Below are positions 9,416-36,377 of a stretch of 64,000 nucleotides of DNA, in pieces. The translations under genes were made by a program, and so were the position numbers. A model generated the notes under the pieces. That model did not search any database. It was not told the origin of the DNA and saw nothing but the letters and a program-made list of their open reading frames with translations. The first letter of the stretch is position 1, and each line of letters begins with the position of its first letter. This DNA comes from Giardia intestinalis (taxonomy: Eukaryota), in assembly GCA_000002435.2 (NCBI GenBank), contig CM018793.1, one strand, 5' to 3'.

Positions 9416-11440
9416 ATGCAACTTCTTACTCTAATCGCTCTTCTTATTGGAACATTAGCTATCAACTGCCCCCGAGACCACTATGCTCTTGGCAACATGT
9501 GTGTTAAGTGCGATGACAGCATGCTCTGGTGTCTCTCGTGTCGGGGGCCGGGAGCCTGCACTGAGTGCAAAGTGGGGTACTACCTCGACCATGGCTATTG
9601 CAAGCCGTGCGACCACACATGCAAGACGTGCAATAATCCGAACAGCTGCTTGGAGTGCAGCGCGAATCACTGCAGAAACGCAAGTGGGGTCTGCGATGAG
9701 CCCGGTGAGGTCTATGACGGGTGCATCAGGTGCGCACATGACACCAATAAGTGCATACAATGCCATGCTGGATACTTCTTTAACGCAAAGACCTTTACGT
9801 GCACTGCATGCAAGGCCAATTGTTACAGCTGCAAGAATGAAACTGAGTGTGAGGAACCCTCTTCTGGATATTATCTAGATAAGAGTACCGGGGATATTAC
9901 CCCATGCACAGATCATAATTGCGAAATTTGTAGCACATCTAGGGACACATGTGATGAGTGCATTGACGGGTATACTCTGAACGGAAGTAATGGCGGTAGC
10001 TGTACTCAGTGCGCTGACAGGAATTGTAGTGAGTGTGAAACCACAGATACGTGTATAGGCTGTAAGAAGGGCTATGTCCTCATTGGAAGCAGATGTTCTC
10101 CTTGTGCTTCGAACTGTGAGTTCTGCATGGATGGTGCGTATCCTGCACCATATCGTTGTATCAATGGCGCATGTAATCTTGGCTACAGATTTGATCCCAG
10201 GACTTCTTCTTGCATGAAGTGCCCTGAGGGTTGCATGTTGTGTCACTATGATAGTGATCGGGAAGAGACAGTGTGTGATAGATGCAATACGACAACGGAT
10301 GCCATTACTGGCCCAAAGATATATGGTGTACTATGCTCTTCAAGCACAGAAGTATCATGCTCTGAAGATGAATTTCAAGAGAATGGGGCCTGCATACGCT
10401 GCGAACTGAGTATACTGGGATGCGATGCGTGCAGCGAACGATACAACTGCACAAAGTGTCAGGATGGCTTCTACTTGTCTGGCAATATCTGCGTGGCCTG
10501 TGACTCCATTTGTGATACATGCGATGGCCCAGGTAACAATTGCAAGACGTGTTGGAACGGGAGAGTTCTAAAGGGAAGTACTTGTGTTCCTGCTAATGAG
10601 GTTATTCCATACTGTGAGGCAGCTAGCGAAAATTCATCGGAAGCCATCTGCATCCAATGTGCTATCGGATACTATGTATCTGACGGCACCTGTTCTCCAT
10701 GTGCTGATAAGTGTGCAACTTGTATTAGCTCTGATATATCTAACTGTATGAGTGCCATTGAGGGATATCGATACAACAGATCAACTAATGCTATTGAACA
10801 GTGCCAGGTTGAAAACTGTAGTAGATGCACTTTTAATGTCAGCGAGTGCTCTACATGTAAAGATGGATACTATCTGTCAGAGGATAACAGAGCTTGTATT
10901 CAAGGCACTGTCCCGAACTGCATGAAATACGTTAGAGGGCAAAACAAGTGTAGCACATGCGTCCATGGGTATGGATTTTCAGAGGGCGCTGATCCTGCCT
11001 GTATTCCGTGCCAAAAGGAGTGCATTGAAGGCTGTTACTTTGCAGATGTTTGTATGCTCGGAGTTTGTGCTGACGGTTTCTACTTCAGTTATGACAACAG
11101 TAAGTGTCTTGAGTGCCCCTCTGGATGCTCTATGTGCAAACAGTTCTCAAATAATGGCCGAGTTGGATGCACGCGATGTGCCTCGGGAGAAACTGTCAGT
11201 CTAAGCACAGCCTATGGCCTGCACTGCAGTGGCCTTTTGAACAAGTCTGGCCTCAAGCCCGGAGTAACAGCAGCGATCGTGATTCTGGTCCTGCTCCTCA
11301 TAGGCGTCTGCGCAGCAATACCGTTCATCGTGAAGGTCCTGGTCCGCAAGGGGGTGCGTAGAAGGACCCGGGCAATGAAGTACGATCGCGGGAGTGCAGA
11401 CAGTCTGCTGCCCGAGGGGTCCGCCGACTCTGCTCTTTGA
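9416..11440 (+). CDS. High-cysteine membrane protein (HCMP, VSP-like), type I
   Basis: N-terminal signal peptide MQLLTLIALLIGTLA. About 12% Cys in dozens of CXXC/CXC motifs with GYY(L/F) spacing. Single C-terminal TM AAIVILVLLLIGVCAAIPFIV, then a basic tail that is not the canonical CRGKA ending. Confidence 0.8.
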   Translation: MQLLTLIALLIGTLAINCPRDHYALGNMCVKCDDSMLWCLSCRGPGACTECKVGYYLDHGYCKPCDHTCKTCNNPNSCLECSANHCRNASGVCDEPGEVYDGCIRCAHDTNKCIQCHAGYFFNAKTFTCTACKANCYSCKNETECEEPSSGYYLDKSTGDITPCTDHNCEICSTSRDTCDECIDGYTLNGSNGGSCTQCADRNCSECETTDTCIGCKKGYVLIGSRCSPCASNCEFCMDGAYPAPYRCINGACNLGYRFDPRTSSCMKCPEGCMLCHYDSDREETVCDRCNTTTDAITGPKIYGVLCSSSTEVSCSEDEFQENGACIRCELSILGCDACSERYNCTKCQDGFYLSGNICVACDSICDTCDGPGNNCKTCWNGRVLKGSTCVPANEVIPYCEAASENSSEAICIQCAIGYYVSDGTCSPCADKCATCISSDISNCMSAIEGYRYNRSTNAIEQCQVENCSRCTFNVSECSTCKDGYYLSEDNRACIQGTVPNCMKYVRGQNKCSTCVHGYGFSEGADPACIPCQKECIEGCYFADVCMLGVCADGFYFSYDNSKCLECPSGCSMCKQFSNNGRVGCTRCASGETVSLSTAYGLHCSGLLNKSGLKPGVTAAIVILVLLLIGVCAAIPFIVKVLVRKGVRRRTRAMKYDRGSADSLLPEGSADSAL

Positions 11441-11873
11441 TGTAAATGTATCTACTGCGGTGGCGATTGTGGAGAAAGCTCGAGTAGGTGCGCCCATTGG
11501 CAGGAGACAGCGACTGTGAGTGCGAATTGGGCGACGGGTCCCCGATGTCTCTTGTATTGGGAAAGATCAGCTGGAGCCGAGAACGATGGTGATTGGATTG
11601 CATAATGCTCGAGACTAAGACTCCTTCAGGCACTCAACTTGGATGAGGATTGCTGAAGATCTGTGTCTACAATAACGTCCTCAGTATAACCTGGGCCAGA
11701 GGTCTGCAGGAGGCGGCTCTCATGGGCTGCTAGGGCTGACGTGTAATCGGCCCCTTCACTGCATCCAGAATTGTAGGTTCCTCGTGGGAGTGCATGCACG
11801 TCCGGAAAAGAAGGACAGACTTGCAGCACACCCAAAGAACGGGCCAGCGTTAGTGAGACGCACCATCATGCAT

Positions 11874-12662
11874 TCACTTCTGGACCTGCCCGGTCTCGAT
11901 GACCTTAACAATGCTGAGCAGGGACTTCGCCTGGTTGACAATCACCGAGTTGGCAAGCAGCGCCGGGACCTTTCCCATAGGATCGCTATGGCAGACAAAC
12001 GTGGCGGCTGTCTTTCCGCTGCCCGGGGCCGTCTCCTCAAAAAGGAAGGCGCTGATGTGGACGACTCCGCGGACCCAGCCCTCCTGCTTGGTCGCCTCTG
12101 GGTAAAGGGCGAGAAGCTCCGGGAGCTCTGGGCTCATGAACGAGTAGAGGATTCGGCGCCTCCCCTCCGCCTTCGGGAGCTCCCTGAAGTTGAGGACGGT
12201 GAGAAACTCGCGGTGGGCGACAATCGCAGAGGGAGACGTGGTGACAAACTGGGAGACGCTAGAGATCTCCCTGACCTCGGGGAAGTCCTGGGCCGTCTTC
12301 TGCTGGGCATAGCCTGCATAGGCTCTCTTCGTCTCGGCGTCGGCTGGAGACTCCAGCGTCTCGCGGCGGAAAAGCGTCGACTTGCGGAGGGCCTGGCTGT
12401 TGGTCTCGTCAACGTTGATGTTCATCGCCACAAGGGCCCCGAAACAGCAGTGGACGGGGTATGGTATCTCCATCGTCGCCTTGAGCGCGTGGTTCTTGCT
12501 GCCCTCGACCACGGCGGTGGTGATCGACATCCCCTCATCCACCTTGGGGTCCTTCCACGACGCCCCCTCAATGAGCCCCATGGCTTTGTCGAGGCTTGCT
12601 GAGCTCAGGGCGCGGATCTTGGCCCACACCTCCAGGGGGATAACGGCCTCTGTGATGGGCAT
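11874..12662 (-). CDS. Hypothetical protein, possible START/SRPBCC-type lipid-binding domain
   Basis: About 260 aa. C-terminal segment HSDPMGKVPALLANSVIVNQAKSLLSIVKVI resembles the START C-terminal D-P-x-G-x-[IV]-P-x-x-[LV]-[VL]-N helix. The opposite-strand ORF 11784..12602 is R/G/L-rich and judged an antisense shadow. Confidence 0.45.
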   Translation of the reverse strand: MPITEAVIPLEVWAKIRALSSASLDKAMGLIEGASWKDPKVDEGMSITTAVVEGSKNHALKATMEIPYPVHCCFGALVAMNINVDETNSQALRKSTLFRRETLESPADAETKRAYAGYAQQKTAQDFPEVREISSVSQFVTTSPSAIVAHREFLTVLNFRELPKAEGRRRILYSFMSPELPELLALYPEATKQEGWVRGVVHISAFLFEETAPGSGKTAATFVCHSDPMGKVPALLANSVIVNQAKSLLSIVKVIETGQVQK

Positions 12663-12755
12663 CCTGCAGAATATTCATGTTGGGCTGGCTAAGCAAAATG
12701 TAAATGAAATCGCACGGAGAGAGAATTTACTAACGAAATTGCACTTATAAGGTCC

Positions 12756-13379
12756 TTGCCGAATATCTGCCGAATGCTTGAACAGTCTATACCGCAGCCT
12801 CCGCAGTTCGCACCGCTAGCAGCAGAGGATGGCCAGAAGTCCTTCGAGCTCAGGAAGGTGATGGTGCCCTACAACCGCATTTCGCCCATAAAACGGGAGT
12901 GGAATAACATATGCACGCCAATCGTTACAGAGCTTTTGCTTGACATTCGCTACAATATATCCGGCCGCTGCATTGAGATACGGCGCAATGCGAAGACGGT
13001 TGCCCCCAACGCCCTCGATCGTGGACAGGACTTCCTCCGCGCCATAACCCTCGGCTTTGAGGTCCAGGACGCTCTTGCGTTTCTGAAAATGGACAATCTC
13101 TACATAGACACCTTCGACATCACTAACGTAAAGCTTGTCCTTAAGGGCGATAACATGTCCCGAGCGATAGGAAGGATAGCGGGCTCCGGCGGCAAGGTCA
13201 AGTTCACCATTGAGAACGCGTCGAAGACACGGATTGTGCTAGCAGATAAGACGGTGCACATCCTGGGCACCGTGGCAGGTACCCGTGTCGCCCGCGATGC
13301 TATATGCGACCTCATTTTGGGGCTTTCTCCAAACAAGGTCTATCAGAAGCTGAAGATGGCTGCAAGCCGCTTTTCCTAA
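12756..13379 (+). CDS. PNO1: RNA-binding protein PNO1/Dim2 (KH domain, pre-40S assembly factor, partner of NOB1)
   Basis: Conserved blocks RKVMVPYNRISPIKREW, LDIRYN, RAITLGFEVQDALAFLKMDNLYIDTF, MSRAIGRIAGSGGKVKF, TRIVLADKTVHILG and ARDAICDLILGLSPNKVY. Confidence 0.85.
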   Translation: MPNICRMLEQSIPQPPQFAPLAAEDGQKSFELRKVMVPYNRISPIKREWNNICTPIVTELLLDIRYNISGRCIEIRRNAKTVAPNALDRGQDFLRAITLGFEVQDALAFLKMDNLYIDTFDITNVKLVLKGDNMSRAIGRIAGSGGKVKFTIENASKTRIVLADKTVHILGTVAGTRVARDAICDLILGLSPNKVYQKLKMAASRFS

Positions 13380-13479
13380 TCCGAGTCGTGACGCTGTGAT
13401 GTGTATAAATGAAAAAAAACTATTTATTTTGATTTCGTTTTTGATGTCTGTTTTTGAAGCCCCGTGAACGCACCGGGGA

Positions 13480-13974
13480 ATGGTCAAGTACGCCTTTAAA
13501 TCGGACAATCTCCTCGTAGGAAAGTCCCGCAGGGACGGCGTCAAGGCCTCCTTCAAGAACACATACTCCACCTGCAGAGCTATCAAGGGAATGGGGGTCA
13601 AGAGAGCCTTTGCCTACCTCGACAACGTCCTGAACCACAAGGAGATCGTCCCCTTCTTCAAGTTCTACAAGGGTGTCGGGCGCCACTCGCAAGCCAGGGG
13701 GAGCGGCACGGACAAGGGTCGCTGGCCCGAGAAGTCTGTTGTCGTCGTCAAGGACATCCTCAAGCAAGCCGTTAGCAACGCAAAGCACGCCCACAAGAAG
13801 GAGGAGGACGAGCTGTACGTCATCTCGTACTGCGTAAATCGCGCACGCGGCCGTCGTCGCAGGACCTTCAGGGCACATGGGCGCATCAGCAAGTATGAGT
13901 CTCAGCCCTGCCATGTCGAGCTTATTGTCGGGCCGAAGCCTCTGGACGTTGAGAAAGCGAAGGCGCTCCAGTGA
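13480..13974 (+). CDS. RPL17: 60S ribosomal protein L17 (uL22)
   Basis: MVKY...FKNT...AIKGM start. GVGRHSQARG...GRWPEKS. RRRTFRAHGRISKYESQPCHVELI. AT-rich initiator upstream. AGTAAAT motif 11 nt after the stop. Confidence 0.9.
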   Translation: MVKYAFKSDNLLVGKSRRDGVKASFKNTYSTCRAIKGMGVKRAFAYLDNVLNHKEIVPFFKFYKGVGRHSQARGSGTDKGRWPEKSVVVVKDILKQAVSNAKHAHKKEEDELYVISYCVNRARGRRRRTFRAHGRISKYESQPCHVELIVGPKPLDVEKAKALQ

Positions 13975-13984
13975 GTCTGTCGGG

Positions 13985-13991
13985 AGTAAAT
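13985..13991 (+). promoter_or_regulatory. Putative polyadenylation signal AGTAAAT downstream of RPL17
   Basis: GGGAGTAAATGC, 11 nt after the TGA stop. Confidence 0.5.
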
Positions 13992-14023
13992 GCGCTGCTT
14001 CTTCCCAACTTCTAATAATTGAA

Positions 14024-15658
14024 ATGTCTAATGTGGGGTACATTCCGATTTCGGCCCTTCCCGTGGCCCAGTCTGCGGTAACACCAACAGAAGCGTTTTT
14101 TAATCAGTTCACTACGCAGACGAGGTATGAGTTGAACGGGCCTGCAGTCTCCATTGCTAGACATCCCCAGGCGGCCGAGCTCGCCGTAGCTAGCTCCACA
14201 CAGGTTATGCTTTATAAGGTTTCAGAGGCAGCGCTTGCAAAGGGTACTGGCCGCTTTGAAATGACCACCACAGCCGTAGCCTATCGCCACGACGGGGCCT
14301 TTTATGTTGCGGCAGATGATAGCGGAGCAGTTGAAGTTTTCATACCGGGGTCCCACTCTTGGCAGCGACGCTTTTACGATTCATCCACTGCAGTCCATGC
14401 AGTTTCGTTCAGCGCCACCGACCAGGAAGTCTTGGCCGGAACTCGCTCCGGAAAGCTTTTCGCGTGGACTGTGACGACCGAAACTCTCTGCTTTGGAGTC
14501 CAGGCCCATGCCGATTCTATCCGTGCAGCGTTCCCTCTTCCCTCCCCACATGCAGCTGATCATTTTGCCCCAGTTCTCACAGCTTCCTATGACAGATACA
14601 TTCGGATATGGAATATGCTGTCCGGCGAGATAGCTCTCGGTGTGTCTGAGGATCCCAAGCGTCGTAATGCTGTTGGTCGATCGGGCACAGGCCCCTCCAT
14701 GCTCTTTGAGTACTCTCTTTCAGAACCAATTGATGCCGCAATCTGGTGCGATGGATATGTCTATATAGCATGTGGTGGATACATCTACTCTTTGCTTTAC
14801 GTTTATACCGACTTGTCGCTATCAGAGGATAACAAGGATAACAGAGGTTCAGTCAAGCTAAAAGCCCACGCTCAATCAGACTATGTTCCTAAGGGAATAT
14901 CGTCCCTATGTGCATGCTCCACTAGCATGGGGACATTCATTTTGGCTGGCTGCTTTGATGGGGGTGTCAGGGTTTATGACTCCACGACTCTACTGCAGGT
15001 AGCAACCCTGATACACTTTGATGTAGCGGTCCTCTCTATAGCTGTTCAGTCTTTTTCACAGACTCCAATATTTTCCAAGAAGGAGGAGCTGGGAATATAT
15101 GTGGGACTGCAAACCAAGACCATGGTGGTGCTGACGTCCTGTCCTCTGGAGGATGCCATTGCCCTTGCAAATGAGAAGGACAAGCCAAAGCAGCGCCTAT
15201 CAAAGAGAGACTTCATGATCCGTCCACGAGCAAATCTAGATTACATGGTCCATGGGTTGAACGTTAGACCATCTTTGTCCCAACTGGATGTCTACTTGGC
15301 AATCTACAAACATCTGGATGCACTGCAGCTGAGTCTCTTGACCAGCAGGGAGCTCACAGGAAGCGTTCTTTTGGAACTAGAATGCCGCGGAATTAAAAAC
15401 TATCACGATGTACTTAGGCAACTTCGAGATGGGGATAAGGCAAAGATACTTGAGTATACAATGAGCTCCCTTGGAAATAACATGCTCTGTGGTCCGTTCT
15501 TACGTGCATGCGACGTTATAATCCCCACAATAACGCTATCTTCAAGCTCTAAGCTTCTGCTTACTGTACACGAATTTCTGATGACCATAGAGAAGGAACT
15601 GGAGCTCATCGAAAACCTTCAACAGTGTCGGAATAACCTTTGTTCACTAAAGATTTGA
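14024..15658 (+). CDS. WD40-repeat protein, hypothetical
   Basis: WD-like blocks (LAGTRSGKLFAWTV, ASYDRYIRIWNM, AGCFDGGVRVYD). The track ORF starts at 13877 inside the RPL17 coding 3' end. The internal Met at 14024 (MSNVGYIPI) is the likelier start. Confidence 0.55.
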   Translation: MSNVGYIPISALPVAQSAVTPTEAFFNQFTTQTRYELNGPAVSIARHPQAAELAVASSTQVMLYKVSEAALAKGTGRFEMTTTAVAYRHDGAFYVAADDSGAVEVFIPGSHSWQRRFYDSSTAVHAVSFSATDQEVLAGTRSGKLFAWTVTTETLCFGVQAHADSIRAAFPLPSPHAADHFAPVLTASYDRYIRIWNMLSGEIALGVSEDPKRRNAVGRSGTGPSMLFEYSLSEPIDAAIWCDGYVYIACGGYIYSLLYVYTDLSLSEDNKDNRGSVKLKAHAQSDYVPKGISSLCACSTSMGTFILAGCFDGGVRVYDSTTLLQVATLIHFDVAVLSIAVQSFSQTPIFSKKEELGIYVGLQTKTMVVLTSCPLEDAIALANEKDKPKQRLSKRDFMIRPRANLDYMVHGLNVRPSLSQLDVYLAIYKHLDALQLSLLTSRELTGSVLLELECRGIKNYHDVLRQLRDGDKAKILEYTMSSLGNNMLCGPFLRACDVIIPTITLSSSSKLLLTVHEFLMTIEKELELIENLQQCRNNLCSLKI

Positions 15659-20080: not shown

Positions 20081-20085
20081 AGACC

Positions 20086-20092: not shown

Positions 20093-20129
20093 TAATGCCA
20101 GTGTATTCTTAATCTTTACAGTCTGAAAA

Positions 20130-22187
20130 ATGTTCATTTTCCTCGTCTGTTCACTAGCGGGCGGGGCTTTGGCGGTATCTGTCGCGATTGACGGATGCGA
20201 CGTGTCGGTGACTAGCATGGGAGCAGAGTACTGCATACATTGTAGCGACTCTAACATGCTCCCCACTCCCGACGGAACTGCCTGTGCTCTTAGCTGCGGA
20301 ACCAATGAGGGTATTAAGGACTGCGTAGCCTGCGGAACGGGTAAGTGCTCGAAGTGCGCTACCTCGGGTAGTTCTACTCTAGTGCCTACATCCGATGGGC
20401 TGAAGTGCGTTTCCAAGTGCAATACTAGCCGTTCAACTGGGATAGAACACTGTCAGACTTGTACCGGGATTCTTCAGCAACTTCAGTGCACCACGTGTAA
20501 CAGTCCTTATACTCCGTCGTCAGACAAGAAGTCCTGCGTGCTCCTTTGTAGTGGTGTCACGGTAGACAATTGTCAGGAGTGTGACAGCGGTGCTACCACA
20601 TGCAAGACATGCCAGCCCGGCTATGCCCTCTCTGCCGATAGAAAGTTCTGTTATCGGACCTGTGGCACAAGTGGACCCATTCAGTATTGCACAGGGTGCA
20701 GAGAGCAGGTGTGTACAGCGTGCAATAGTCTCACATATCTTAAGAATAACCACTGCGTCTTGCGAAGAGGTTTGGAAGAACCCTGCTCTGCCGACGACCC
20801 CTGTCACGTTTCCCTAAGGTGTCTCTTTTCGGGGCTGGGGCTAGAGAATGGGACAAAAAAGTGCTTTCCAGCCTCCTGTGCTCCCGCGTCATCTGATCCT
20901 GGAGTGCACTCTGTCTGTCACGGTCAAGGGACGTGCAGGGACACAAGTTTCAATCTGGAAAGCCAGTCCTCTGCAGGCACGTGTGCTTGCCTATCAGCAG
21001 ACTTGTCTTCTGGCGATAACTGCGGAGTCTGTATCAATTCCACTCTTACACCGAGCTATATCGCAGTTGGGACTTGTGTGGCAAAGCAGGGCCCGTACGA
21101 AAGCTGCTCTTCGTCACTTACCTGCCAGCCCGGTCTTTCATGTTACATGAACTATCAGTGTGTCCCAGACGACTGTATTTCTGGTAATATTCTCAATAAA
21201 CTTGTATGCGGTAAGGCTGGAAGTTGCGGAGAGGCAAGCTTTGATTTTAGCTCAAATAAGTGGACTGCAACCTGTGTATGCTTTGACCCTAGACGGAAAC
21301 CGAGTGAAAAGTGTACTAAATGTACAACTGGAGACCCTGTTGGGATAACCTGTGCCAATACAAATTGCGTCGAAAACAAGATTGTCTGTAGTGGCCACGG
21401 TTCCTGTAAGGAAGATGGATCAGGATGCGACTGCGACGAAGGATTTGCGCCTGTCACTGTCACTGCCAAGCATCGCTGCTATCCTTCCACTTGTGGCGGA
21501 ACCCCGTCTGACTCCGGTACCTACTGCAACAATGGACTGGGAACCTGCTTGCAGCAGTTAGATAACAGTTATCTCTGCGCGTGCCCTGCCGGCTATAGAG
21601 GCGTGGAGACCCACGGGAACACAAGAGCCGCCGCTGGCTTGGACGGGTGCGTACCGTGGTCATGTTACCCGATGCTTAACGGGAGTATTTGTGGTCCATT
21701 CGATGGAGGAACATGTGGGACCACTGCAGCTAGAAGTCACGCATGCACCTGTCACTCAGGCTTTAAGCTGACAGACAAGGGCTGCCTTCCGGAGAAGTGT
21801 GGTCCAAAACAGGACGGTAGTGTCTGCCTATCCAAGGGGATATGCAAGAGCAACGGCGGCATTTGGACCTGCGAATGCCTCGACGGCTATCGCGTGACAG
21901 ACGCTGGCTGCCTTAATCACCGCTGCAAGGCCACAAGCGCTGGAATCCCTTGCAATGGCCACGGTGTCTGCCAGGATAATGTCAGATGCAAGTGCTCGTC
22001 AGGCTACGCAGGCCCCACCTGTTCCATCACAACAGTCGCACTCGCCGCGGCAATAACGGTTCCGATTCTGGTCCTGTTTGTGGTCGGGTTTCTGACATAC
22101 ATCCTTGTGAAGCGAGCGATTGCAAAGCGCGAACAAGCCAAAGTCATGAACCGAATGTTCCCTGTTATCCCCAGCAGGAAGAAATGA
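20130..22187 (+). CDS. High-cysteine membrane protein with EGF-like modules (HCMP / tenascin- or Notch-like annotation class)
   Basis: Signal peptide MFIFLVCSLAGGALA. CXXC-rich N-terminal half. C-terminal half has repeated EGF-like C.C..G(F/Y) modules (CDCDEGFAPV, CACPAGYRGV, CTCHSGFKLTD, CECLDGYRVTD, CKCSSGYAGPTC). TM AITVPILVLFVVGFLTYILV plus a basic tail. Confidence 0.8.
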   Translation: MFIFLVCSLAGGALAVSVAIDGCDVSVTSMGAEYCIHCSDSNMLPTPDGTACALSCGTNEGIKDCVACGTGKCSKCATSGSSTLVPTSDGLKCVSKCNTSRSTGIEHCQTCTGILQQLQCTTCNSPYTPSSDKKSCVLLCSGVTVDNCQECDSGATTCKTCQPGYALSADRKFCYRTCGTSGPIQYCTGCREQVCTACNSLTYLKNNHCVLRRGLEEPCSADDPCHVSLRCLFSGLGLENGTKKCFPASCAPASSDPGVHSVCHGQGTCRDTSFNLESQSSAGTCACLSADLSSGDNCGVCINSTLTPSYIAVGTCVAKQGPYESCSSSLTCQPGLSCYMNYQCVPDDCISGNILNKLVCGKAGSCGEASFDFSSNKWTATCVCFDPRRKPSEKCTKCTTGDPVGITCANTNCVENKIVCSGHGSCKEDGSGCDCDEGFAPVTVTAKHRCYPSTCGGTPSDSGTYCNNGLGTCLQQLDNSYLCACPAGYRGVETHGNTRAAAGLDGCVPWSCYPMLNGSICGPFDGGTCGTTAARSHACTCHSGFKLTDKGCLPEKCGPKQDGSVCLSKGICKSNGGIWTCECLDGYRVTDAGCLNHRCKATSAGIPCNGHGVCQDNVRCKCSSGYAGPTCSITTVALAAAITVPILVLFVVGFLTYILVKRAIAKREQAKVMNRMFPVIPSRKK

Positions 22188-22209
22188 TGACTATGTATCC
22201 ATACATTTA

Positions 22210-24732
22210 CTAGGGCTCCTCCTCTTCTTCGGCTTCCTCTTGCTCCTCCTGTGCAGCAAGCTCTCGGGCACGTTCCTCTTCCCTTGCGCGTTTTTCGGCC
22301 AAGCGGGCCTCCTTCCTTTCTAGACGTTCTCTAATAAGCCTGTCAAGCTCGTCCTTATCACGACGCTCAATGTCCTCCACCCGCTCACGACACTCAGTTT
22401 CTATCTCCAAGACGGGGTCGTCTTCCTCTAATATGTCTGCAGGAGGGAGTTGCATTGGGGCAGGCACCACCGCGCGATACTTGTCAAGGGCATTGATACT
22501 CTCTGTCTGTCGACCATCGCCTATGTAAATAGAGGTATAGACCAGGGGGTCGCCGTTGCTGTGGTTGAAGCAGACATTGAGCATTCCTGGCCAACGGTTG
22601 CTGCGGACGACGACGGGAGAGTGGCGGTTCAGGGTCTTGTTGAAGATGACGGTATACGCAGGGACGACCTTCTGCCCATCGACCTCCTCTGCGTTGACAT
22701 CGACAGAGCCCATTGGCCCTGCATGAAGGACAAGTGGAGCATCTGTATCTGCAGGAGAGAGCATCTCTGGTCTGTCCTTTTGGAGGACTTCCTTTTCTTC
22801 ATCATAGTAATCGCCCTCCAAAAGCTGCTCATCCTGCTCCTTCAGAGTGTCCTCTATCTCCTGTTCCTTATCCCAATATTCGCGCTCCTTGTCATCAAGC
22901 TCCTGCTCTTTACAGTTAATGTCAACGGGGGCAATCTCAAGTCCAAAGTACCTGCTGGTCTGGTAAACAGAGCGGTTCTCCTTGAACACAGGGTCCCATG
23001 GATCTCGAACCGCCTCCCAGAACGCTCGGGGGACCGTAAAGCGGCACTTTTGCCGGGCAATCTGCTTATAAGTATCGATAGCCTCAGTTAATATGCGGAG
23101 CTGATCAGACTCGGCGTATGCAGCATCAAGCCGCTCCTGTACAGGCTTTTTAGGAGGAGGAAGGGGCTCCTCTGGTTCCTCTTCTTCTGGCTCTTCTTCT
23201 CCTTCGTCTTTATCTTCGCCATCTTCACCCTTTTCTTCGCCATTGGCATCCTCCTCCTCTTCAACCTTCTCCTCAACTGGAGGTTCATCCTCAGGTTCTT
23301 CCTTTTCTTCCTCTTCGGGCTCTTCTTCCTCCGCCTCTTCTTCAGGTTCCTCTTCGTCCTCTGGATAAGTCCACGGAAGAACCTTTCCTCTGTGCGACAG
23401 GATCGGACATGCATGCACCCAGTTTGCCAGCTCTAATAGCTCAACAAATTCAACGTTAGCTATCTCTCTATTGCGCTCGGGCCATGGAAGAATGCTTTTC
23501 CCAGCCATCTTAGAGTCTACTGGCTCGTCTGGCTCACATGAATCCTTGGAAAAGTCTGCAACTACAGTAGGATCTGCAAATAATAGGGCCTTCTGCCTCG
23601 CTTGTTCCTCTTCCGTTATATCTTCCTCTGTCTCTTCAGGCTCAGGGCCTGGCACTAAGCATGCAGCAGGAGCTAGCTCTGCACCATGCTTGATGCGCGT
23701 GATAATGCACCGCAGATAGTGAGCCTCACATCCTGGAAAGGGAGGAATTCTGTCATAGATACGCCTGGATAAATTCCCTGAGAGGCGAACATTAATGAAC
23801 CGCGACAGCTTTAGTTGACGGGCCTCCAAGTCCGGCAAACGGACCCACTTGACAACCTGGTTCACATCGGCAACGAGCAAGTCTGCCGTGACAAAATACA
23901 CGAAGCGGTTGGCCCCCTCTGGGTGCACCCCATCGCCAGCAGGCTCAACGTGTGGATAGAGGCGCCGAGGCTTAGGAGCTATCGTTCTCAGATCAAATTC
24001 TAGGTCATCTGGGTCCAGATAGAGCTTTTCCTCGTCAGTAAGCTTCTTAATCTTTCTATCTGTGAGGTAGGTGTAATTAGCAGGCTTTCCATCTTTGGCA
24101 AGTGCAGATGGTGGAGGAGCTATCGTTTCTGCTGTAGGTGCTGTATCTAGATCTTTGTTTAGATCTAAAATATCCGAATTGACTGAGGCAGGTCCCGGCC
24201 CCTGAAAGCGGAACATCTTCTTGCGCGGCTTGAAAGGGAGGCACTCCAGGACATAGTAGTGTCCAGATGTTGTGGTAAACCGGCCGAAGAAGGAGATAAC
24301 AGAAAAGTAGCCCCGCCGCTCTACCTCAAATTGAGAAATCCTCTTTTGTAAGATAGATGCGGTAACGTCGTCAAATCCCTGCCCAACTAACTTAAGCTGC
24401 TCATTGAGGCGAAGGATATTGGGAACGATTGTTTTGCACGGCTTAAGGACAGAGACAGCATGATCTGTCGACAGAGCTGACTTGAGAACCTCCTCCAATC
24501 GTGCAAAATCATCATCAGAAAGGACTGGTTCATAGGTTTTTCCAGCCGTCTCGTTATCATAGCAACCAACAGACGCCTTGATTTCCCTGGAAATAGAGGC
24601 AATGGCTGCTGCGGCGTCTTCAGGATGGTCATCCAGTAGTTTTGCAATGATCTGGGCAAGGTGGCCATATATGGTCTGTCCGAACTCATTGCACACCTGC
24701 AGGTAGTCAACGAACTCAGAAATGCGATCCAT
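22210..24732 (-). CDS. Radial spoke head protein family member (RSP4/6/9-like) with a long acidic Glu/Pro-rich insert
   Basis: Family-typical motifs. GHYYVLE. KWVRLPD. IPPFPGCEAHYLRCIITRI (compare PPFPGNE.NYLRAQIARI). C-terminal VVRSNRWPGMLNVCFNHSNGDPLVYTSIYIGDG (compare RSLLWPG...YVYVGTG). Central EEEPEEEAEEEEPEEEEKEEPEDE acidic block. Confidence 0.6.
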   Translation of the reverse strand: MDRISEFVDYLQVCNEFGQTIYGHLAQIIAKLLDDHPEDAAAAIASISREIKASVGCYDNETAGKTYEPVLSDDDFARLEEVLKSALSTDHAVSVLKPCKTIVPNILRLNEQLKLVGQGFDDVTASILQKRISQFEVERRGYFSVISFFGRFTTTSGHYYVLECLPFKPRKKMFRFQGPGPASVNSDILDLNKDLDTAPTAETIAPPPSALAKDGKPANYTYLTDRKIKKLTDEEKLYLDPDDLEFDLRTIAPKPRRLYPHVEPAGDGVHPEGANRFVYFVTADLLVADVNQVVKWVRLPDLEARQLKLSRFINVRLSGNLSRRIYDRIPPFPGCEAHYLRCIITRIKHGAELAPAACLVPGPEPEETEEDITEEEQARQKALLFADPTVVADFSKDSCEPDEPVDSKMAGKSILPWPERNREIANVEFVELLELANWVHACPILSHRGKVLPWTYPEDEEEPEEEAEEEEPEEEEKEEPEDEPPVEEKVEEEEDANGEEKGEDGEDKDEGEEEPEEEEPEEPLPPPKKPVQERLDAAYAESDQLRILTEAIDTYKQIARQKCRFTVPRAFWEAVRDPWDPVFKENRSVYQTSRYFGLEIAPVDINCKEQELDDKEREYWDKEQEIEDTLKEQDEQLLEGDYYDEEKEVLQKDRPEMLSPADTDAPLVLHAGPMGSVDVNAEEVDGQKVVPAYTVIFNKTLNRHSPVVVRSNRWPGMLNVCFNHSNGDPLVYTSIYIGDGRQTESINALDKYRAVVPAPMQLPPADILEEDDPVLEIETECRERVEDIERRDKDELDRLIRERLERKEARLAEKRAREEERARELAAQEEQEEAEEEEEP

Positions 24733-30003: not shown

Positions 30004-33000
30004 TTACAAGTACTTCAAGAAGTTAACTAAGTCACTACGGTCCAATCCCTCGCACTCATGAACCTGTTTAATTGTAAATGATGTTCCAGTACTAGTGGGG
30101 AGGGGGGACCCTATGGATGTGTGTAAATTGCTATGGTTACTCGGAGTTAACTGCCTGAATTGGTCCATGTTTCGTGCATCATCTATCGGTTTGGGTTGAT
30201 CTGATGACCTTACCTGGGTGTCGCGACGAAAGGTTCTAGAGGCAGCACGGGAGCTAGGCCTGGATGATGTGTTACTAGTAGAGACGAAAGAATCTGCCTT
30301 TTGGAAGGCTGGAGATGCCACAATACTAGGTCTGGAAGCTTCTGGAACCACAGGGCCATAGGTGATCTCGAATTCTAGAAGCTCCATGGACGCTTGAGCA
30401 AGAATCTCAGTCAGCGGTAAGTCAAATTGATCCTCGATATAAGAAAGACGCTTTTGAGACGCTTCGATGAACTTCGCTGGGCATGCGTTGAGGGCTGCGC
30501 TTGCAAGATCTTCTGGGTGTTGGGCCTGTTGCTTGTTTAACCTTGAGCGGCTTCTGCTTCGGGGCTCAGAGTGAGATTCCGAAGAGTGAACATTACCGAC
30601 ATTGAGCAGACGTAAGAAGGTAGGATAAGAAGACCGCTCTTCTTGTAAGATAGCCAGCCGAAGAACCGAGTGCTCCAGCACAAGACCTAGAACACTCGAC
30701 AGGGGCTTTTTAAACGAGTGACCAGAATTCGAGCCAAGGACTTGTCTCGAAACTGGTTCTAGATAGTTGCTAGTGTATCTATAGCAAGGATAGAGGTATT
30801 GTGGTATTGTATCAGGCTCCTTTACCCATGCCGGCTGATAAGGAAAGCTACCCAAGTCTTCTAAGTAGCTGCTGGCGTGCTTCCAAAGATTCTCAGGTAT
30901 ACCTGGGTATCGTACCTTTGAAGAACTATAAGAGTTGCCCATAAACTCTTCATAGATTTCTAGCAAAGGAATCCAAAGCGTAGGAGCAGCAGAGAATGCT
31001 TGAGAAATAACTTTGTACATGCAGGCCTGAACCCTGGCGAGATAGTTCCCGATCTTGTGGGTGAATGCTCCTGCGTCTACTTCGGCAATATACGCATCCA
31101 TTGATCCAGTGAATTGCTGAAAGGAAGGACGTGTTAGGAGCTTTATCTGGCGGGGCCAATCTCTTACAGAGGACCTGTGATATATGTAATAATCACGTAG
31201 ACAAGGGTAGGCACTGCTCATGTATGTAACGTGGTTGCTCAGTGGATGGAGACAAGCAGAATTGTCCAGTCTGCCGGCAGAAAGTATGCAGGGGTTGAAG
31301 GCATGAAGATTATTCTTTAATAGTACATCAGATATCTGCATGCCTGTCTCGTCCATCTGAGCAAACGATTGAAGATAGGAAAATTGGATATCAAGTAGGT
31401 TACATACAGGCTGTATGCACCTATAAAATTGCCGAATTGATCGTAAGCTCAGAAGGTTCTTTCGCATCAACTTGCGGTAGTAGCAAGCAGCAAATGCAGA
31501 GCAAGTTAGCTCCTTAGATAGCCAGTCGTAATCGCTTGAAGCAAACATGTGCACGGCACACAGGTATAAGACCGAAAAGAGTGCAAGAGGACTTTCAGAC
31601 TCTAGTTTAGTGTTCGCCTCGTTACAAACAAGTAACAATTTAGATGAGCTAAGGATACCCAGACACTTCTCAATAAGCTGCGACTGTGTAGAGTTACAAG
31701 TGGTTTCCTTTCCACGGAAGTTGGCAGGAACAGAGAAGGTTGGCCCCAAAATGTCAGACATTACGTTGGACAGGAGATAGCCTTGCATGAAACATGTACC
31801 ACAAGTAAAGACCAAAGTAGAAAGGAAATAGAAGAACGAATATATCTGTACGGATAGCAGTGCATGCAAGAGAAGCTGGTTCGTTCGCAAACCTAAGGAG
31901 CTAGTAAAGTTGCTCTCTGAGGGATGCTCCACTTCGTAGGCAGGGTCACCTGGTATCAGAAGTTTCATCTTCTGAAGCTCGTTGTGAAGATACTTTGCTT
32001 GTTCTTCTGATACGAGATAAGATAGAATTGCTGAATAATCAACCTCTACTGCAAGAAGCTGGCAAAGATAGGTGTCATAGAGGTATATTGTTTGAAATCG
32101 TTTCCGAACCTCTGCACACCCGTTTGCCCACAGCTTCTCCAACTGAACTTCTTGGTCACAAAGATTAATGGCAAGGAACGCACAGTCGCAAATGTATATG
32201 CCCTGATCTGCTGTAGGGAGCTGTACAAATCGCTTCGACGAGCAATCAAGCAGTGTCCCAGATCTGTGTAGGTTCAATTCCTTGAGAATAGTAATATATG
32301 CCACTTTCTCCGTCGTTACTGGAATCAAGTGAGTTAATTCGGAAAAAAGTCCTGTAATGGTACAACCATCTGAAGCTTCAGTGTCCCAACTTGTGAGTTG
32401 AGATAAAGTTAGACATGAGGACAAATCAGGATTATTGGTTGAATGTGTGTTCTCACAAGAATGAGTACTATGTTCTATCGATACAGTGCCAGCGTCATAG
32501 GACAAGACCCGTGACTTTGCTTTAAAGATAGACTTGGGAATAAAGCGCTCTGTGGTATGACGGAGTAATTGTCTGGACTGATAGATAAGGGCATCAGATG
32601 AGGAGCATGAGATCACTGGGGGATCATCGTTTGAGTTGGAGTTAGCACAGATAATGTCAAACAAAGACGACTGGACCGGATATGCGCGGTCAGAGCCGGT
32701 GTTGCTATCTACTTCATCGGTACCCGTGCAGGTAGGTGTAGGAATTCGATGCACGGCTCCAGAGCGGAACAATGTCGCCATGTCAATACTCAGAAGCGTG
32801 TCTGTGCCCATGAATACCGTGGTGAAGCCTCCCACTTGAGTACATGAAACTAGCGTTGTCTTGGCCACACCTGCTACAGGGTCAGGGACTACCCAAATGA
32901 CTAGGTTAGACGTGAAAAATAACTGAGTAGAGCACACCGAAAAGAAAGAATGACGGTAAGTGTTTCGAACCGCAACTTTAAACGTGAGAGAGTCGAGGAG

Positions 33001-34530
33001 AACAGAGGAGTTTAGCTCGCTAGGTGAAAGACCATGCAAGATGTGACTAGAAATAGCAGCTGCAAACAGGCGGAAGTTAGTGGTGTCGACACGCTTCGTG
33101 ACACCAGCTTCTAGCTTGTCCTCGTCGCGCCCTGTCATCTTGAGTCCTTCCATATTCGTGTCTATCCGTGCACTTGTGTGATATATTGCTTCCGTAAATG
33201 GTGAAACAAGAGTAAGCATAGCTGTCATTGATGCCCCGCTATCTGCTGCAATGTCTGTGGGCACAGTTGAAGAAAGAAAGTACTCAAATGCAATAATTGG
33301 AAGTGCTGATGAAATGCTACCGAACGAGACAGCTATTGTGCATGGAATCAATGCACTAAATGCTTCTGCCACAATGAGGGGATAGTCTGGGAATGGTCCC
33401 ACGCAAAGGGATGTGATATGTCTTAAACTGTGTGTAGATGGGCCAGGAACTTGTGGGACAGAAAGATTACTTGGCTGGGAAGTGCTTAGACCAGAATGCC
33501 GACTAACTGCCTTGCGAAAGTCTTTATAAATGGACACCGTCAGGTTTGCTGTTCCAATGCTGGCCATTTGAGAGGCAATCCGTTGCCTCGTTATAACAAC
33601 CAAGTCCCCGGTTGTGGGAAGAAACTGCCTAAAGGCCACAGGCTCTCGCATGTGTGAAGCCAGCGTGCCTAGGTGCTTGGCCTCGTGCCAGATAATGAAT
33701 GACTTCACCTGATCAGTAAAGGATTTATTGAAGCGAATATTTATTTGCTCGATTGTCGTCCGAGATACTGTCGTGTCTGTTGGCCTGTGATAAATACAGT
33801 TAGTGAAGGGCAGAGTATATTCATCTAAAATGGCTCCTGATACATAAGATATCAAAAAGTATGAAAGTGAACTCTTCTCCATGGTAATGCTGATGTTATC
33901 AATTTGAAGGACAGAAGAGTGGTACGGAGTTGGGACATCAGAGACAAGATCTGGACTGTGCTTCTGTTCACCAGACAAAAAGTACCCTATCACGGGGTCT
34001 GGGGCATTGGACACCAAACGGTGCATCCCATACATGCCCATGATTGGCTCAACATCACAACCTGCCACAAAAGACGGCCACGAGCCACCATCTTGATAGC
34101 TTTGTGACGCAAGAGAGACTAGTATAGTGTCATGCAAGCGACGGGAGCGCTTGATTGGTTGATTGGTAAAGGGAGAGACAATAGACACAAACGTCATCAA
34201 TAAGAAGGCCCCGGAACCAGGCGAAAGAGCACAGTGATAGACGATGGCAGCCGCCGATATTTTAAAGATGGGAATAGAGCTTTGAATTGCATCGTTTGTG
34301 GAATCTGAAATGGATTGCAGGTAGATCTCTGAAAGAACAGACGAAGGCCCACTGAGTGTCTCCAGAACAACCAGCATCCTTCCATCTGGTGCCTGTCCGA
34401 CAAGGCGGCAGGAAGAGGCCGACTTGGAACGAGTTGGAGACGGCAAACACCAATTGGCGCCACCGGTCTCTATATGCTTTATGGCTTCATTGTGAACAAA
34501 TCTTTTCAATGTGCTGCGTTTCAACAGCAT
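30004..34530 (-). CDS. Very large hypothetical protein (1508 aa)
   Basis: Uninterrupted 4.5-kb ORF with no recognisable motif. Its start lies 54 bp from the divergent HCMP at 34584. Confidence 0.6.
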   Translation of the reverse strand: MLLKRSTLKRFVHNEAIKHIETGGANWCLPSPTRSKSASSCRLVGQAPDGRMLVVLETLSGPSSVLSEIYLQSISDSTNDAIQSSIPIFKISAAAIVYHCALSPGSGAFLLMTFVSIVSPFTNQPIKRSRRLHDTILVSLASQSYQDGGSWPSFVAGCDVEPIMGMYGMHRLVSNAPDPVIGYFLSGEQKHSPDLVSDVPTPYHSSVLQIDNISITMEKSSLSYFLISYVSGAILDEYTLPFTNCIYHRPTDTTVSRTTIEQINIRFNKSFTDQVKSFIIWHEAKHLGTLASHMREPVAFRQFLPTTGDLVVITRQRIASQMASIGTANLTVSIYKDFRKAVSRHSGLSTSQPSNLSVPQVPGPSTHSLRHITSLCVGPFPDYPLIVAEAFSALIPCTIAVSFGSISSALPIIAFEYFLSSTVPTDIAADSGASMTAMLTLVSPFTEAIYHTSARIDTNMEGLKMTGRDEDKLEAGVTKRVDTTNFRLFAAAISSHILHGLSPSELNSSVLLDSLTFKVAVRNTYRHSFFSVCSTQLFFTSNLVIWVVPDPVAGVAKTTLVSCTQVGGFTTVFMGTDTLLSIDMATLFRSGAVHRIPTPTCTGTDEVDSNTGSDRAYPVQSSLFDIICANSNSNDDPPVISCSSSDALIYQSRQLLRHTTERFIPKSIFKAKSRVLSYDAGTVSIEHSTHSCENTHSTNNPDLSSCLTLSQLTSWDTEASDGCTITGLFSELTHLIPVTTEKVAYITILKELNLHRSGTLLDCSSKRFVQLPTADQGIYICDCAFLAINLCDQEVQLEKLWANGCAEVRKRFQTIYLYDTYLCQLLAVEVDYSAILSYLVSEEQAKYLHNELQKMKLLIPGDPAYEVEHPSESNFTSSLGLRTNQLLLHALLSVQIYSFFYFLSTLVFTCGTCFMQGYLLSNVMSDILGPTFSVPANFRGKETTCNSTQSQLIEKCLGILSSSKLLLVCNEANTKLESESPLALFSVLYLCAVHMFASSDYDWLSKELTCSAFAACYYRKLMRKNLLSLRSIRQFYRCIQPVCNLLDIQFSYLQSFAQMDETGMQISDVLLKNNLHAFNPCILSAGRLDNSACLHPLSNHVTYMSSAYPCLRDYYIYHRSSVRDWPRQIKLLTRPSFQQFTGSMDAYIAEVDAGAFTHKIGNYLARVQACMYKVISQAFSAAPTLWIPLLEIYEEFMGNSYSSSKVRYPGIPENLWKHASSYLEDLGSFPYQPAWVKEPDTIPQYLYPCYRYTSNYLEPVSRQVLGSNSGHSFKKPLSSVLGLVLEHSVLRLAILQEERSSYPTFLRLLNVGNVHSSESHSEPRSRSRSRLNKQQAQHPEDLASAALNACPAKFIEASQKRLSYIEDQFDLPLTEILAQASMELLEFEITYGPVVPEASRPSIVASPAFQKADSFVSTSNTSSRPSSRAASRTFRRDTQVRSSDQPKPIDDARNMDQFRQLTPSNHSNLHTSIGSPLPTSTGTSFTIKQVHECEGLDRSDLVNFLKYL

Positions 34531-34583
34531 CGTGTGCAGCTGGACGACCCCGCGCCGTATCCGGAAGGGCTAGTTTTAAAATT

Positions 34584-36377
34584 ATGTGGCTAGTCTGGCT
34601 CGGACAGCTCATAAGTCTCAGTTATTCTTTTTGTCCCCTGCGCAATTGCATAAAGTGTCCAGTCACTGATGCTGATAAGCTTTGCGAAGTTTGTAAGCTT
34701 GGATATTATCTCGATTCCACAGATAACGTTTGCTTGCCTTGCTCCACGACCGTAACACACTGTAGCAGGTGTAGCGCTGACGGCAAAAGCTGCTATTCAT
34801 GTGCTGATGGTCGTGTACTGAAAACAGTTTCTACAGGGCAGTCGACCACACAGGAATGTTTCCTTAGTCAGGAACAGCTCTGTAGTGCAGTGTCCAACTG
34901 TGGTCTTTGCACCGTCACTGATAGCACTACTACTTGTGATGCATGTCTGCCAGGATACTTCCTGCAAAGCTCTTCAAATGCTTGTGTGAAATGCGCTGAG
35001 AATTGCGTCTATTGTTCAGCAGAGTCCACCTGCACATCTTGTAAGGATAACTATACACTTTCATCACCGCTGCCTTCTACCTGCACTGCATGCACTCTTC
35101 AGAACTGTGACCTGTGCTATGATGGTTCTATTTGTGACACTTGCTCTAGTGGATTCCACCACAACGATGCTGGAACTTGTGTGCAGAATACTAACTGTGA
35201 TGATGTTGGATGTAAGGAATGCAACGGTGGACATGCTCCGTGTACGAAGTGCTACAAAGGATATTACCTTACAGGTCAGACCTGCACTCTATGCAGCGTC
35301 GACATCTCCAACTGTATCCTCTGCGATTCTCCATCTGCAGGAGCCTCTTCCCGTGCTACTCTGTCATGCACTCGGTGCCAACAGGGTTATCACTTGAGGG
35401 ATAATGCCTGTGAGTCCTGCTCAGATATAACTAATCACTGCCAGAGCTGCCCTAGTGGAATTTGTACGTCCTGTGAGCCAGGGTACCAGTTGATGAACTA
35501 CCCGCGCTACTGCAAAGAGAAAACAACAACAGATTGCTCAAATCTCAGCAACTGCCTGGCTTGCACGTCTGATTCTCGATGCATTAGCTGTGCGCCTGGG
35601 TACTCACCAACAAATGGTGTTTGTGAGCTTTACACTGGCTGCGCCGTTGCCAACTGCGGGATCTGCAGGAGCGATCAATACACCTGTGACTTCTGCGTTC
35701 GTGGATACAGACTAGAGAATAACCAGTGTATATCGAAGTGTACAGATAGAAACTGTCATACCTGTAGCCCTGGGGCAGACGGACAGGAGGTCTGCAAACA
35801 GTGCATGCCTGGATACATCCTTGATACAGACAGTAGCGTGTGCACCTCATGCGGCGTTGAAAAGTGCGTTTCGTGTTCTGTATCAACAGAAGCAAAGAAG
35901 GCGTCAACTAGCCATGCCTATAGGAGCTTCTCTAGGTGGTTACAGCAGTTCCAATCCAAGAGAGCTGCAACCGCTCCATCTAACCGGATAGAGGATTGGG
36001 AACATAAGTTGAAAGCAATAGCACAGTATTATAGACTCACTGATATCCAATTGAATAACCTGCGGGTTGTTCTCTATGATTACTTTACAAATGGATCCAT
36101 TTCTATGCATTTATTCAACGACTCCGACCTTATTTTGAAAGAAATATCTAAGGTATATACCAGCGGCAAACAAGGAGTAACGGAGGCCAGCCTATCTAGT
36201 GCCAAGCTGTTTGTCTGCTCAAAGTGTGAAGACGGGTATACCCTAACGCACAATACCTGTGTGAAGCAAACCCTGACTGCAAGTAATATTGTGGGCATAA
36301 GTGCCGGTGTCATTTTAGCAGTCGGGATAATTGCTGGGGCAATAGTCATGACAGTAACTTCAAAGAAGCACAAGTAG
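34584..36377 (+). CDS. High-cysteine membrane protein (HCMP) with a cysteine-free insert before the TM
   Basis: Signal-like MWLVWLGQLISLSYS. About 20 CXXC modules. A roughly 110-aa Cys-free segment (aa ~505-615 of the track ORF) precedes a final CSKCEDGYTLTHNTC module and TM IVGISAGVILAVGIIAGAIVMTV. The track ORF begins at 34356, inside the neighbouring gene. Met 34584 is preferred. Confidence 0.75.
   Translation: MWLVWLGQLISLSYSFCPLRNCIKCPVTDADKLCEVCKLGYYLDSTDNVCLPCSTTVTHCSRCSADGKSCYSCADGRVLKTVSTGQSTTQECFLSQEQLCSAVSNCGLCTVTDSTTTCDACLPGYFLQSSSNACVKCAENCVYCSAESTCTSCKDNYTLSSPLPSTCTACTLQNCDLCYDGSICDTCSSGFHHNDAGTCVQNTNCDDVGCKECNGGHAPCTKCYKGYYLTGQTCTLCSVDISNCILCDSPSAGASSRATLSCTRCQQGYHLRDNACESCSDITNHCQSCPSGICTSCEPGYQLMNYPRYCKEKTTTDCSNLSNCLACTSDSRCISCAPGYSPTNGVCELYTGCAVANCGICRSDQYTCDFCVRGYRLENNQCISKCTDRNCHTCSPGADGQEVCKQCMPGYILDTDSSVCTSCGVEKCVSCSVSTEAKKASTSHAYRSFSRWLQQFQSKRAATAPSNRIEDWEHKLKAIAQYYRLTDIQLNNLRVVLYDYFTNGSISMHLFNDSDLILKEISKVYTSGKQGVTEASLSSAKLFVCSKCEDGYTLTHNTCVKQTLTASNIVGISAGVILAVGIIAGAIVMTVTSKKHK

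Follow-up and report, generated by a model that had tools for sequence, protein, structure and literature searches.

Three high-cysteine membrane protein genes in a core block of Giardia intestinalis chromosome 5 are probably conserved in position and not isolate-variable

Do high-cysteine membrane protein (HCMP) genes of Giardia intestinalis that lie among core genes behave as the variable family whose name they bear? The question is raised by a stretch of 64,000 nucleotides, here called the window, which by exact-sequence look-up belongs to chromosome 5 (about 4.02 Mb) of strain WB clone C6 (ATCC 50803). A sequence-only reading had placed three HCMP genes of different subtypes in it and had proposed them as fast-diverging candidates for host-interface variation. 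The three open reading frames are indeed present, exactly match annotated HCMPs, and are referred to here as A, B, and C:

9416 to 11440, plus strand: HCMP A, 674 residues, 13.8% cysteine, 36 CXXC and 0 CXC motifs
20130 to 22187, plus strand: HCMP B, 685 residues, 12.1% cysteine, 11 CXXC and 7 CXC motifs
34584 to 36377, plus strand: HCMP C, 597 residues, 12.1% cysteine, 30 CXXC and 0 CXC motifs

All seven window proteins tested, these three included, are identical to annotated WB proteins. A, B, and C stand far above the cysteine background, because no other ATG-initiated open reading frame of at least 200 residues in the window exceeds 5% cysteine. Our answer is that they are probably non-variant, positionally conserved members of the HCMP family (CRMP since 2022), already annotated in the WB reference, and that they resemble neither switchable antigens nor encystation proteins nor factors induced by host contact.

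The evidence that carries this answer comes from a comparison of 20 consecutive WB genes, i.e., the three HCMPs and 17 neighbours, with the contigs encoding their closest homologues in P15 (assemblage E), in assemblage B (GS contig AHHH01000113 and two SRA assemblies), and in a third, more divergent lineage (SRR17450160 and ERR3333378). Gene order is the same in WB, P15, assemblage B, and the third lineage, and this retention of positions between assemblages runs contrary to variability. Full-length orthologues occupy the same position for A in assemblages A, E, and B, for B in these assemblages and the third lineage, and for C in assemblages A and B and the third lineage, plus assemblage E after repair of a single base. 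C is uncalled in the P15 annotation; at its locus there (L008, 12480-14272), one base is missing in a homopolymer of adenines near 13792. Loss or pseudogenisation of C in P15 was considered and rejected, as insertion of one base restores an intact 598-codon open reading frame. The missing base is probably a 454 sequencing error, and the lack of a called C gene in P15 would then be technical in origin, because the lesion is a single-base homopolymer deletion in a 454 assembly.

With regard to rates of change, protein identity between WB and P15 is 84.9% for A, 85.2% for B, and about 84% for C (median of the 17 neighbours, 92.7%), and between WB and assemblage B it is 68, 74, and 71%, respectively (neighbour median, 86.6%). 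The identities to P15 lie less than one standard deviation below the published genome-wide mean for P15 and WB, which is 90% with a standard deviation of 7. Ratios of nonsynonymous to synonymous substitution rates (dN/dS or omega; Nei-Gojobori, WB versus P15) are 0.10 for A, 0.12 for B, and 0.15 for C, those of the neighbours ranging from 0.003 to 0.21 with a median of 0.083, and dN of the HCMPs is about 2.3 times the neighbour median. The highest omega in any 60-codon window is 0.19 in A, 0.21 in B, and 0.57 in C, and in none of the three genes does such a window reach 1. Cysteine columns are invariant across lineages at 98.6-98.9%, and non-cysteine columns at 51-59%. Between assemblages AI and AII, identities are 97.2% (A), 96.4% (B), and 99.0% (C), and 97.5-99.7% for four neighbours. 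A, B, and C thus change at a somewhat higher rate than the housekeeping genes around them; purifying selection on them is clear, their disulfide scaffold is frozen, and they are not variable in presence or absence. The fast divergence between isolates that had been proposed for them is only weakly supported: the genes do outpace their housekeeping neighbours, but in their positional orthologues, dN/dS values, and cysteine columns they are not variable.

Bulk RNA-seq data for A and C are available in the HCMP summary table of Peirasmaki 2020 (PMC7461913), in which the two genes carry the numbers 16716 and 16721. For C, fragments per kilobase of transcript per million mapped reads (FPKM) amount to 207 in trophozoites, the highest value of the tabulated HCMPs, and to 26 in cysts, with a 0.8-fold level on contact with Caco-2 cells. 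For A, FPKM are 89 in trophozoites and 17 in cysts, levels on Caco-2 contact are 0.63-fold and then 0.55-fold, and low iron gives 1.34-fold. The HCMPs described as host-induced include neither gene, and in the same study FPKM of HCNCp rises from 13 to 168 during encystation, opposite to both. For A and C, the proposal of a host-interface role therefore meets expression that declines in encystation and shows no rise on contact with host cells.

In architecture the three genes agree with what had been read from the sequence, A being CXXC-only, B combining CXXC motifs with an array of EGF-like modules, and C interrupting its CXXC repeats with a long cysteine-free stretch. Each protein has one N-terminal and one strong C-terminal hydrophobic segment by hydropathy, which agrees with the proposed signal peptide and single transmembrane (TM) segment; published predictions exist for A and C. 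At the N-termini, small residues occupy positions -3 and -1 after a hydrophobic core (TLA|I, ALA|V, and SYS|F in A, B, and C), a pattern consistent with a signal peptide. TMHMM-derived TM segments of 16716 and 16721 are given in Table 1 of Davids 2006 (PMC1762436). As had been noted, none of the proteins ends in CRGKA, the termini being ...SADSAL, ...PSRKK, and ...TSKKHK.

Gene A is GL50803_16716, an HCMP of Group 5, by exact match to the annotated protein. Davids 2006 (Table 1) lists for ORF 16716 a TM segment, the tail KVLVRKGVRRRTRAMKYDRGSADSLLPEGSADSAL, a mass of 72.6 kDa, and 36 CxxC motifs, all matching A, and the supplements of Peirasmaki 2020 give 16716 as a protein of 674 residues encoded on chromosome 5. 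Two of its parts stand out:

9416 to 9463, plus strand: hydrophobic leader of A (residues 1-16, MQLLTLIALLIGTLAI), a putative signal peptide by hydropathy
11264 to 11437, plus strand: TM segment of A (residues 617-639) and 35-residue cytoplasmic tail (residues 640-674), the best-conserved part of A

In the WB secretome, 16716 is listed among proteins with a secretion signal peptide (Ma'ayeh et al., 2017). Across assemblages A, E, and B, invariant columns make up 93% of the TM region of A (residues 613-640) and 88% of its tail (641-674), versus 56% for the non-cysteine columns of the ectodomain. Because TM segment and tail are conserved so far above the ectodomain, we infer that A may have a constrained membrane-proximal or cytoplasmic function. 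By-eye inspection of the tail found no canonical YXXphi or [DE]XXXL[LI] sorting motif. A single conserved cysteine (C632) lies within the TM segment of A, and B and C have no cysteine in TM segment or tail. Group 5 orthologues and paralogues from assemblage B (L002, 10001-12052; P0083) are deposited as 'Variant-specific surface protein' and end in ...GSADSAI or ...EEPDLL, not in CRGKA, which makes the naming of these genes inconsistent from one assemblage to another.

Gene B corresponds exactly to XP_001707600.1 (KAE8305828.1), annotated as 'High cysteine membrane protein' without a group. Its homologues form only three clusters, all full length, with identities of 85, 74, and 66%. The protein can be divided as follows:

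20178 to 20765, plus strand: CXXC-type cysteine-rich N-terminal region of B (residues 17-212), by cysteine spacing
20766 to 22025, plus strand: EGF-like module array of B (residues 213-632), two 12-cysteine composite units followed by five 6-cysteine EGF-type units
22035 to 22184, plus strand: TM segment of B (residues about 636-660) and 25-residue basic tail ending PSRKK, by hydropathy

The array is recognised by the Pfam models EGF_2 (PF07974; 26.5 bits, cut-off 22.1) and EGF_Teneurin (24.8 bits, cut-off 24.3), and its cysteine spacing repeat '4 8 5 8 1 10' corresponds to C-x4-C-x8-C-x5-C-x8-C-x-C-x10. Signal peptide and TM segment of B are assigned from hydropathy plus a predicted helix, which the AlphaFold2 model places at residues 634-676 with low confidence.

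Gene C is GL50803_16721, an HCMP of Group 2 (exact match). Table 1 of Davids 2006 gives ORF 16721 the tail TSKKHK, a mass of 66.9 kDa (from a 622-residue model), and 30 CxxC motifs, which match C. Three starts come into question, i.e., GTG 34356 of the mechanically called open reading frame, ATG 34509 of the old 622-residue model, and ATG 34584 of the current RefSeq model of 597 residues. Only this last, shorter model opens with a signal-peptide-like leader, and orthologues from two other lineages align from its methionine. In a different strain of assemblage A, the protein was recovered from the insoluble fraction and flagged as carrying a signal peptide (Coelho et al., 2016). Its distinctive parts are:

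35877 to 36215, plus strand: cysteine-free insert of C (residues 432-544, 113 residues), its longest cysteine-free run
35985 to 36158, plus strand: orphan core of the insert (residues 468-525), RIEDW..KLK.IA.YY.LT..QL..LRVVLYDYF..GSIS.HLFNDS..I..EI..Y, strongly conserved across three lineages
36288 to 36374, plus strand: TM segment of C (residues 569-591) and 6-residue tail TSKKHK, by hydropathy and Davids 2006, Table 1

The insert consists of a variable linker (residues 432-467), on which the 60-codon stretch of highest omega falls, the strongly conserved core, and a second variable linker; taken as a whole it is the least conserved region of C, with 41% of columns invariant, and the TM region (scored as residues 563-591) reaches 76%. 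No Pfam family covers the core, and an exhaustive profile search of 1.84e9 representative proteins with the cysteine-free module matched only the orthologue group of C itself. The only others were two matches to Ig_7-repeat adhesins of Bacteroidota, which were rejected because their score is the sum over 6-17 weak repeats. As far as HMMER can reach, the core is thus an orphan module. AlphaFold2 predicts helices for the core, at a pLDDT below 50; from all such models the secondary-structure pattern alone was used.

Membership in the HCMP family can be judged by two sets of criteria. Davids 2006 required a type 1 membrane protein of at least 400 residues with at least 10% cysteine, at least 20 CxC or CxxC motifs, and no CRGKA. 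A (36 motifs) and C (30 motifs) agree with all of these, their counts equal those in Table 3 of that study, and ORFs 16716 and 16721 are among its 61 founding HCMPs. B, with 18 CXXC plus CXC motifs, falls below the cut-off of 20 and agrees with the other criteria; it fits the additional class of the same study (at least 10% cysteine, single TM segment, fewer than 20 motifs), and current annotation still calls it an HCMP. The CRMP decision tree of 2022 asks for at least 4% cysteine, at least two CXC, CXXC, or CXXXC motifs, a single C-terminal TM domain, and no CRGKA, and in cysteine content, motifs, TM domain, and lack of CRGKA all three proteins conform to it. The tree further calls for a signal peptide supported by at least two of Phobius, SignalP, and TOPCONS, with which the N-termini described above would be consistent. 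They are only distantly related to each other. A and C share 26-28% identity across their repeats, B resembles A detectably only in its region of residues 17-212 (E = 2e-7; about 100 N-terminal residues), and similarity between B and C is not significant. Since mutual similarity is low or confined, A, B, and C are not recent local duplicates, in agreement with the earlier view that they form no tandem array.

The rival that survives best holds that A, B, and C are fast-diverging, isolate-variable surface genes which happen to lie in a core region and serve as loci of host-interface variation. Published accounts call the family variable overall, with repertoires that differ by isolate. Within their block the identities of the three genes are the lowest or close to it, their dN is elevated as given above, the linker of the C insert reaches an omega of 0.57, and P15 carries both a mosaic paralogue of A and an extra copy of B. 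Yet wherever the locus was recovered the genes are 1:1, full-length positional orthologues, about 99% of their cysteine columns are invariant, omega is 0.10-0.15 with no window above 1, divergence stays within one standard deviation of the genome mean, and neither A nor C is induced by host-cell contact. Their surroundings are also unlike those of variable islands. VSP and HCMP regions have been described in the literature as GC-rich islands, and published spacer medians rise from 79 nt over all genes to 363 nt at CRMPs and 1280 nt at variant-specific surface proteins (VSPs), but the spacers on either side are 49 and 22 bp for B, 53 and 122 bp for C, and 203 and 433 bp for A, at a GC content of 47-53%. 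With respect to presence or absence and gross rate, isolate variability is largely refuted, and we consider it improbable as an account of these genes.

That A, B, and C are VSPs, or derive from them, and take part in antigenic variation seems extremely improbable. A scores 68.4 bits against the Pfam VSP model PF03302 (cut-off 31.4), C gives a weak match of 22.9 bits below that cut-off, and GenBank names the assemblage B orthologues of A accordingly; B does not match the model. However, PF03302 captures a generic CXXC repeat that also occurs in proteins of ciliates and Entamoeba, and because it matches such non-Giardia proteins it is not diagnostic for VSPs. None of the three proteins has the CRGKA tail or the GGCY motif, their TM segments differ from the VSP TM segment, long gene-poor flanks are absent, and A and C are both highly expressed at once in the bulk data. 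Finally, an assignment to encystation or cyst-wall-associated cysteine-rich proteins like HCNCp, the founding member of the same broad family, can hardly be credited, as FPKM of 16716 and 16721 drop monotonically from trophozoite to cyst while that of HCNCp climbs, no specific similarity to HCNCp is seen, and both genes fall into other MEME groups.

Several observations weigh against conserved, non-variant membership all the same. The three genes are among the most diverged of the block: only a 1508-residue hypothetical protein is lower in comparison with both assemblages, a 400-residue hypothetical protein being marginally below the HCMPs with respect to P15 only (84.2%), and the AI/AII identities of A and B lie at the low end of those of the neighbours. 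No orthologue of A, B, or C was detected outside G. intestinalis, so that conservation is shown within the species complex only. Plasma-membrane and peripheral-vesicle localisation has been reported for other HCMPs only, and the AlphaFold2 models are weak, with a mean pLDDT of 54 for C and 49 for B from orthologue alignments of 4-5 sequences. Furthermore, extra copies exist. A has a paralogue on chromosome 4, 21321, a separate gene of 675 residues whose tail is nearly identical to that of 16716 (Peirasmaki 2020); in WB, TM segment and tail are identical between the two. In P15, a second Group 5 gene (P0080, on a contig of 95,630 bp) is a mosaic with respect to the P15 orthologue of A (L001, 10001-12025), the first 150 or so and the last 85 or so residues being 96-100% identical, or 98-100% by alignment columns, and the middle 45-74%, and the near-identical ends include TM segment and tail with P15-specific substitutions. 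From the alignment, this homogenisation of the ends of orthologue and paralogue suggests gene conversion of a core HCMP with a paralogue. An extra copy of B is found in P15 contig ACVC01000159 (L005, 9980-12623, corresponding to 20109-22756 of the window), on a segment of 2,648 bp comprising B and 546 bp of the 3' end of the radial-spoke gene. It sits in unrelated surroundings between a NEK kinase and a VSP-like gene of 1073 residues and matches, at 99.2-99.7% identity, the ends of syntenic contigs 224 and 223, both of which are interrupted within B. This copy is either a recent segmental duplication or a chimeric contig.

If A, B, and C are indeed conserved, non-variant HCMPs, each would be a type I membrane protein whose leader is cleavable and whose large ectodomain is followed by a single TM helix and a short cytoplasmic tail other than CRGKA. 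The ectodomains would be built from disulfide-bonded CXXC modules, with additional EGF-type modules in B. The three probably represent ancient, mutually distant lineages of the family and not local duplicates, handed down vertically in 1:1 orthology, within a gene-dense core block of chromosome 5, in the G. intestinalis assemblages covered here. Selection would hold the cysteine scaffold near-invariant, and in A also TM segment and tail, while the loops between cysteines would drift at about twice the rate of neighbouring proteins. A plausible role is that of constitutive structural or ligand-binding parts of the trophozoite surface and of peripheral-vesicle membranes, with some shedding.

More tentatively, the HCMP family might be two-tiered, with a small, ancient, syntenic core including A, B, and C, whose scaffolds are fixed, and a variable periphery seeded from this core by segmental duplication or gene conversion. 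Functional modules specific to single lineages would be a further mark of the core members, exemplified by the probably helical cysteine-free core of C (residues 468-525) and by the conserved TM segment and tail of A, and the periphery by the 2.65-kb extra copy of B and the mosaic paralogue of A, both in P15. We regard this extension as possible but rather doubtful; if it were true, assemblages A, B, and E would share the core copies as invariant, abundantly expressed surface proteins, which would make them candidates for pan-assemblage antigens or receptors.

The observation holds, but it is an ordinary one. The P15 genome paper (2010) had already reported "a few positionally conserved HCMPs", so that the observation is already known, and what is new here is its quantification at the level of the genes A, B, and C. 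Literature searches by accession gave no matches. The value of the analysis lies mainly in a correction: the family label 'variable HCMP' is a poor predictor of how single members behave. If surface-exposed, A, B, and C would be more relevant as invariant markers or antigens of human-infective assemblages than as loci of variation.

The genes between and around A, B, and C are core genes, encoding a START-domain protein, PNO1, ribosomal protein L22, a WD40 protein, an AAA-like ATPase, an ABC-F protein, a radial spoke head protein, an ankyrin protein, and DnaJ; farther away are genes for ribosomal protein S2/SA, a NEK kinase, a DHHC palmitoyltransferase, and malic enzyme. Alternation with ribosomal and metabolic genes, as read from the sequence, is borne out in that core genes are interspersed with the HCMPs. 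The 'ribosomal' items of the HCMP interval are L22 and PNO1 only, and the sole clear metabolic enzyme lies outside it:

13480 to 13974: ribosomal protein L22, inside the HCMP interval
56663 to 58336: malic enzyme, beyond the HCMP interval

Three HCMPs within 27 kb might appear to be a cluster. By our own Poisson estimate, a chromosome of about 4.02 Mb with 33 CRMP genes has a lambda of 0.22 per 27 kb, and a given HCMP would have at least two others within that distance with a probability of about 0.02. A significant enrichment was therefore rejected; the triplet is statistically unremarkable because about 1-2 such triplets are expected by chance genome-wide.

Some further features of the block deserve mention. 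The hypothetical gene of 1508 residues (30004-34530, minus strand) is head-to-head with C and has no Pfam domain. With a dN/dS of 0.21 and identities of 80% to P15 and 64% to assemblage B, it is the fastest-evolving gene of the block, outpacing every HCMP. The DHHC palmitoyltransferase gene (48272-49291, minus strand; Pfam DHHC, E = 1e-32) is situated 12 kb downstream of C. In GS contig AHHH01000113, homology to PNO1 (L002, 13622-13832) ends at about residue 45; next come a minus-strand tRNA-Thr(TGT) gene and unrelated genes. Two independent SRA contigs, from assemblage B and the third lineage (L003, 1-500; L006, 1-540), start inside PNO1 at residues 36 and 23. PNO1 is uninterrupted in WB and P15, and the window holds no tRNA gene. 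The discontinuity reflects either the breakpoint of a rearrangement or a branch that recurs in the assemblies.

Comparison with known systems places A, B, and C within Giardia families. Sequence and profile searches of the PDB gave nothing at E of 0.01 or below for any of the three. After Giardia proteins, the next-best matches to A and C are cysteine-rich repeat proteins of Entamoeba and ciliates (E. invadens EIN_138190, Blepharisma, and EGF-like proteins of Tetrahymena) with 25-29% identity. Many of them carry a Pfam VSP annotation, but the likeness is limited to the generic CXXC repeat without orthology, and lengths and C-termini differ. EGF-like HCMPs, tenascin-like proteins, and 'neurogenic locus Notch' proteins of Giardia share with the C-terminal two-thirds of B the 6-cysteine EGF-type modules, in which the CXC motif lies at C4-x-C5. 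However, the EGF-like HCMP group has 24-28 CXC and 4-6 CXXC motifs (Davids 2006), whereas B has 7 and 11, and the tenascin-like proteins lack a TM segment, which is predicted for B. Because of its CXXC-type N-terminal region and motif counts unlike those of EGF-like HCMPs, B is a hybrid architecture. VSPs have a CXXC-rich type I ectodomain in common with the three proteins, of which A scores above the Pfam VSP cut-off; they are unlike A, B, and C in their CRGKA tail, GGCY motif, own type of TM segment, and long gene-poor flanks, and no mutually exclusive expression is reported for the three. The closest known system is the HCMP family (Davids 2006), or CRMP family (Rodriguez-Walker 2022 preprint), with which the three proteins share type I topology, at least 10% cysteine, many CXXC or CXC motifs, and absence of CRGKA. 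Most members of this family are described as located in variable, VSP-adjacent, gene-poor, and GC-rich regions with isolate-specific repertoires, whereas A, B, and C occupy a densely packed core block whose spacers are short, and each has 1:1 orthologues across assemblages.

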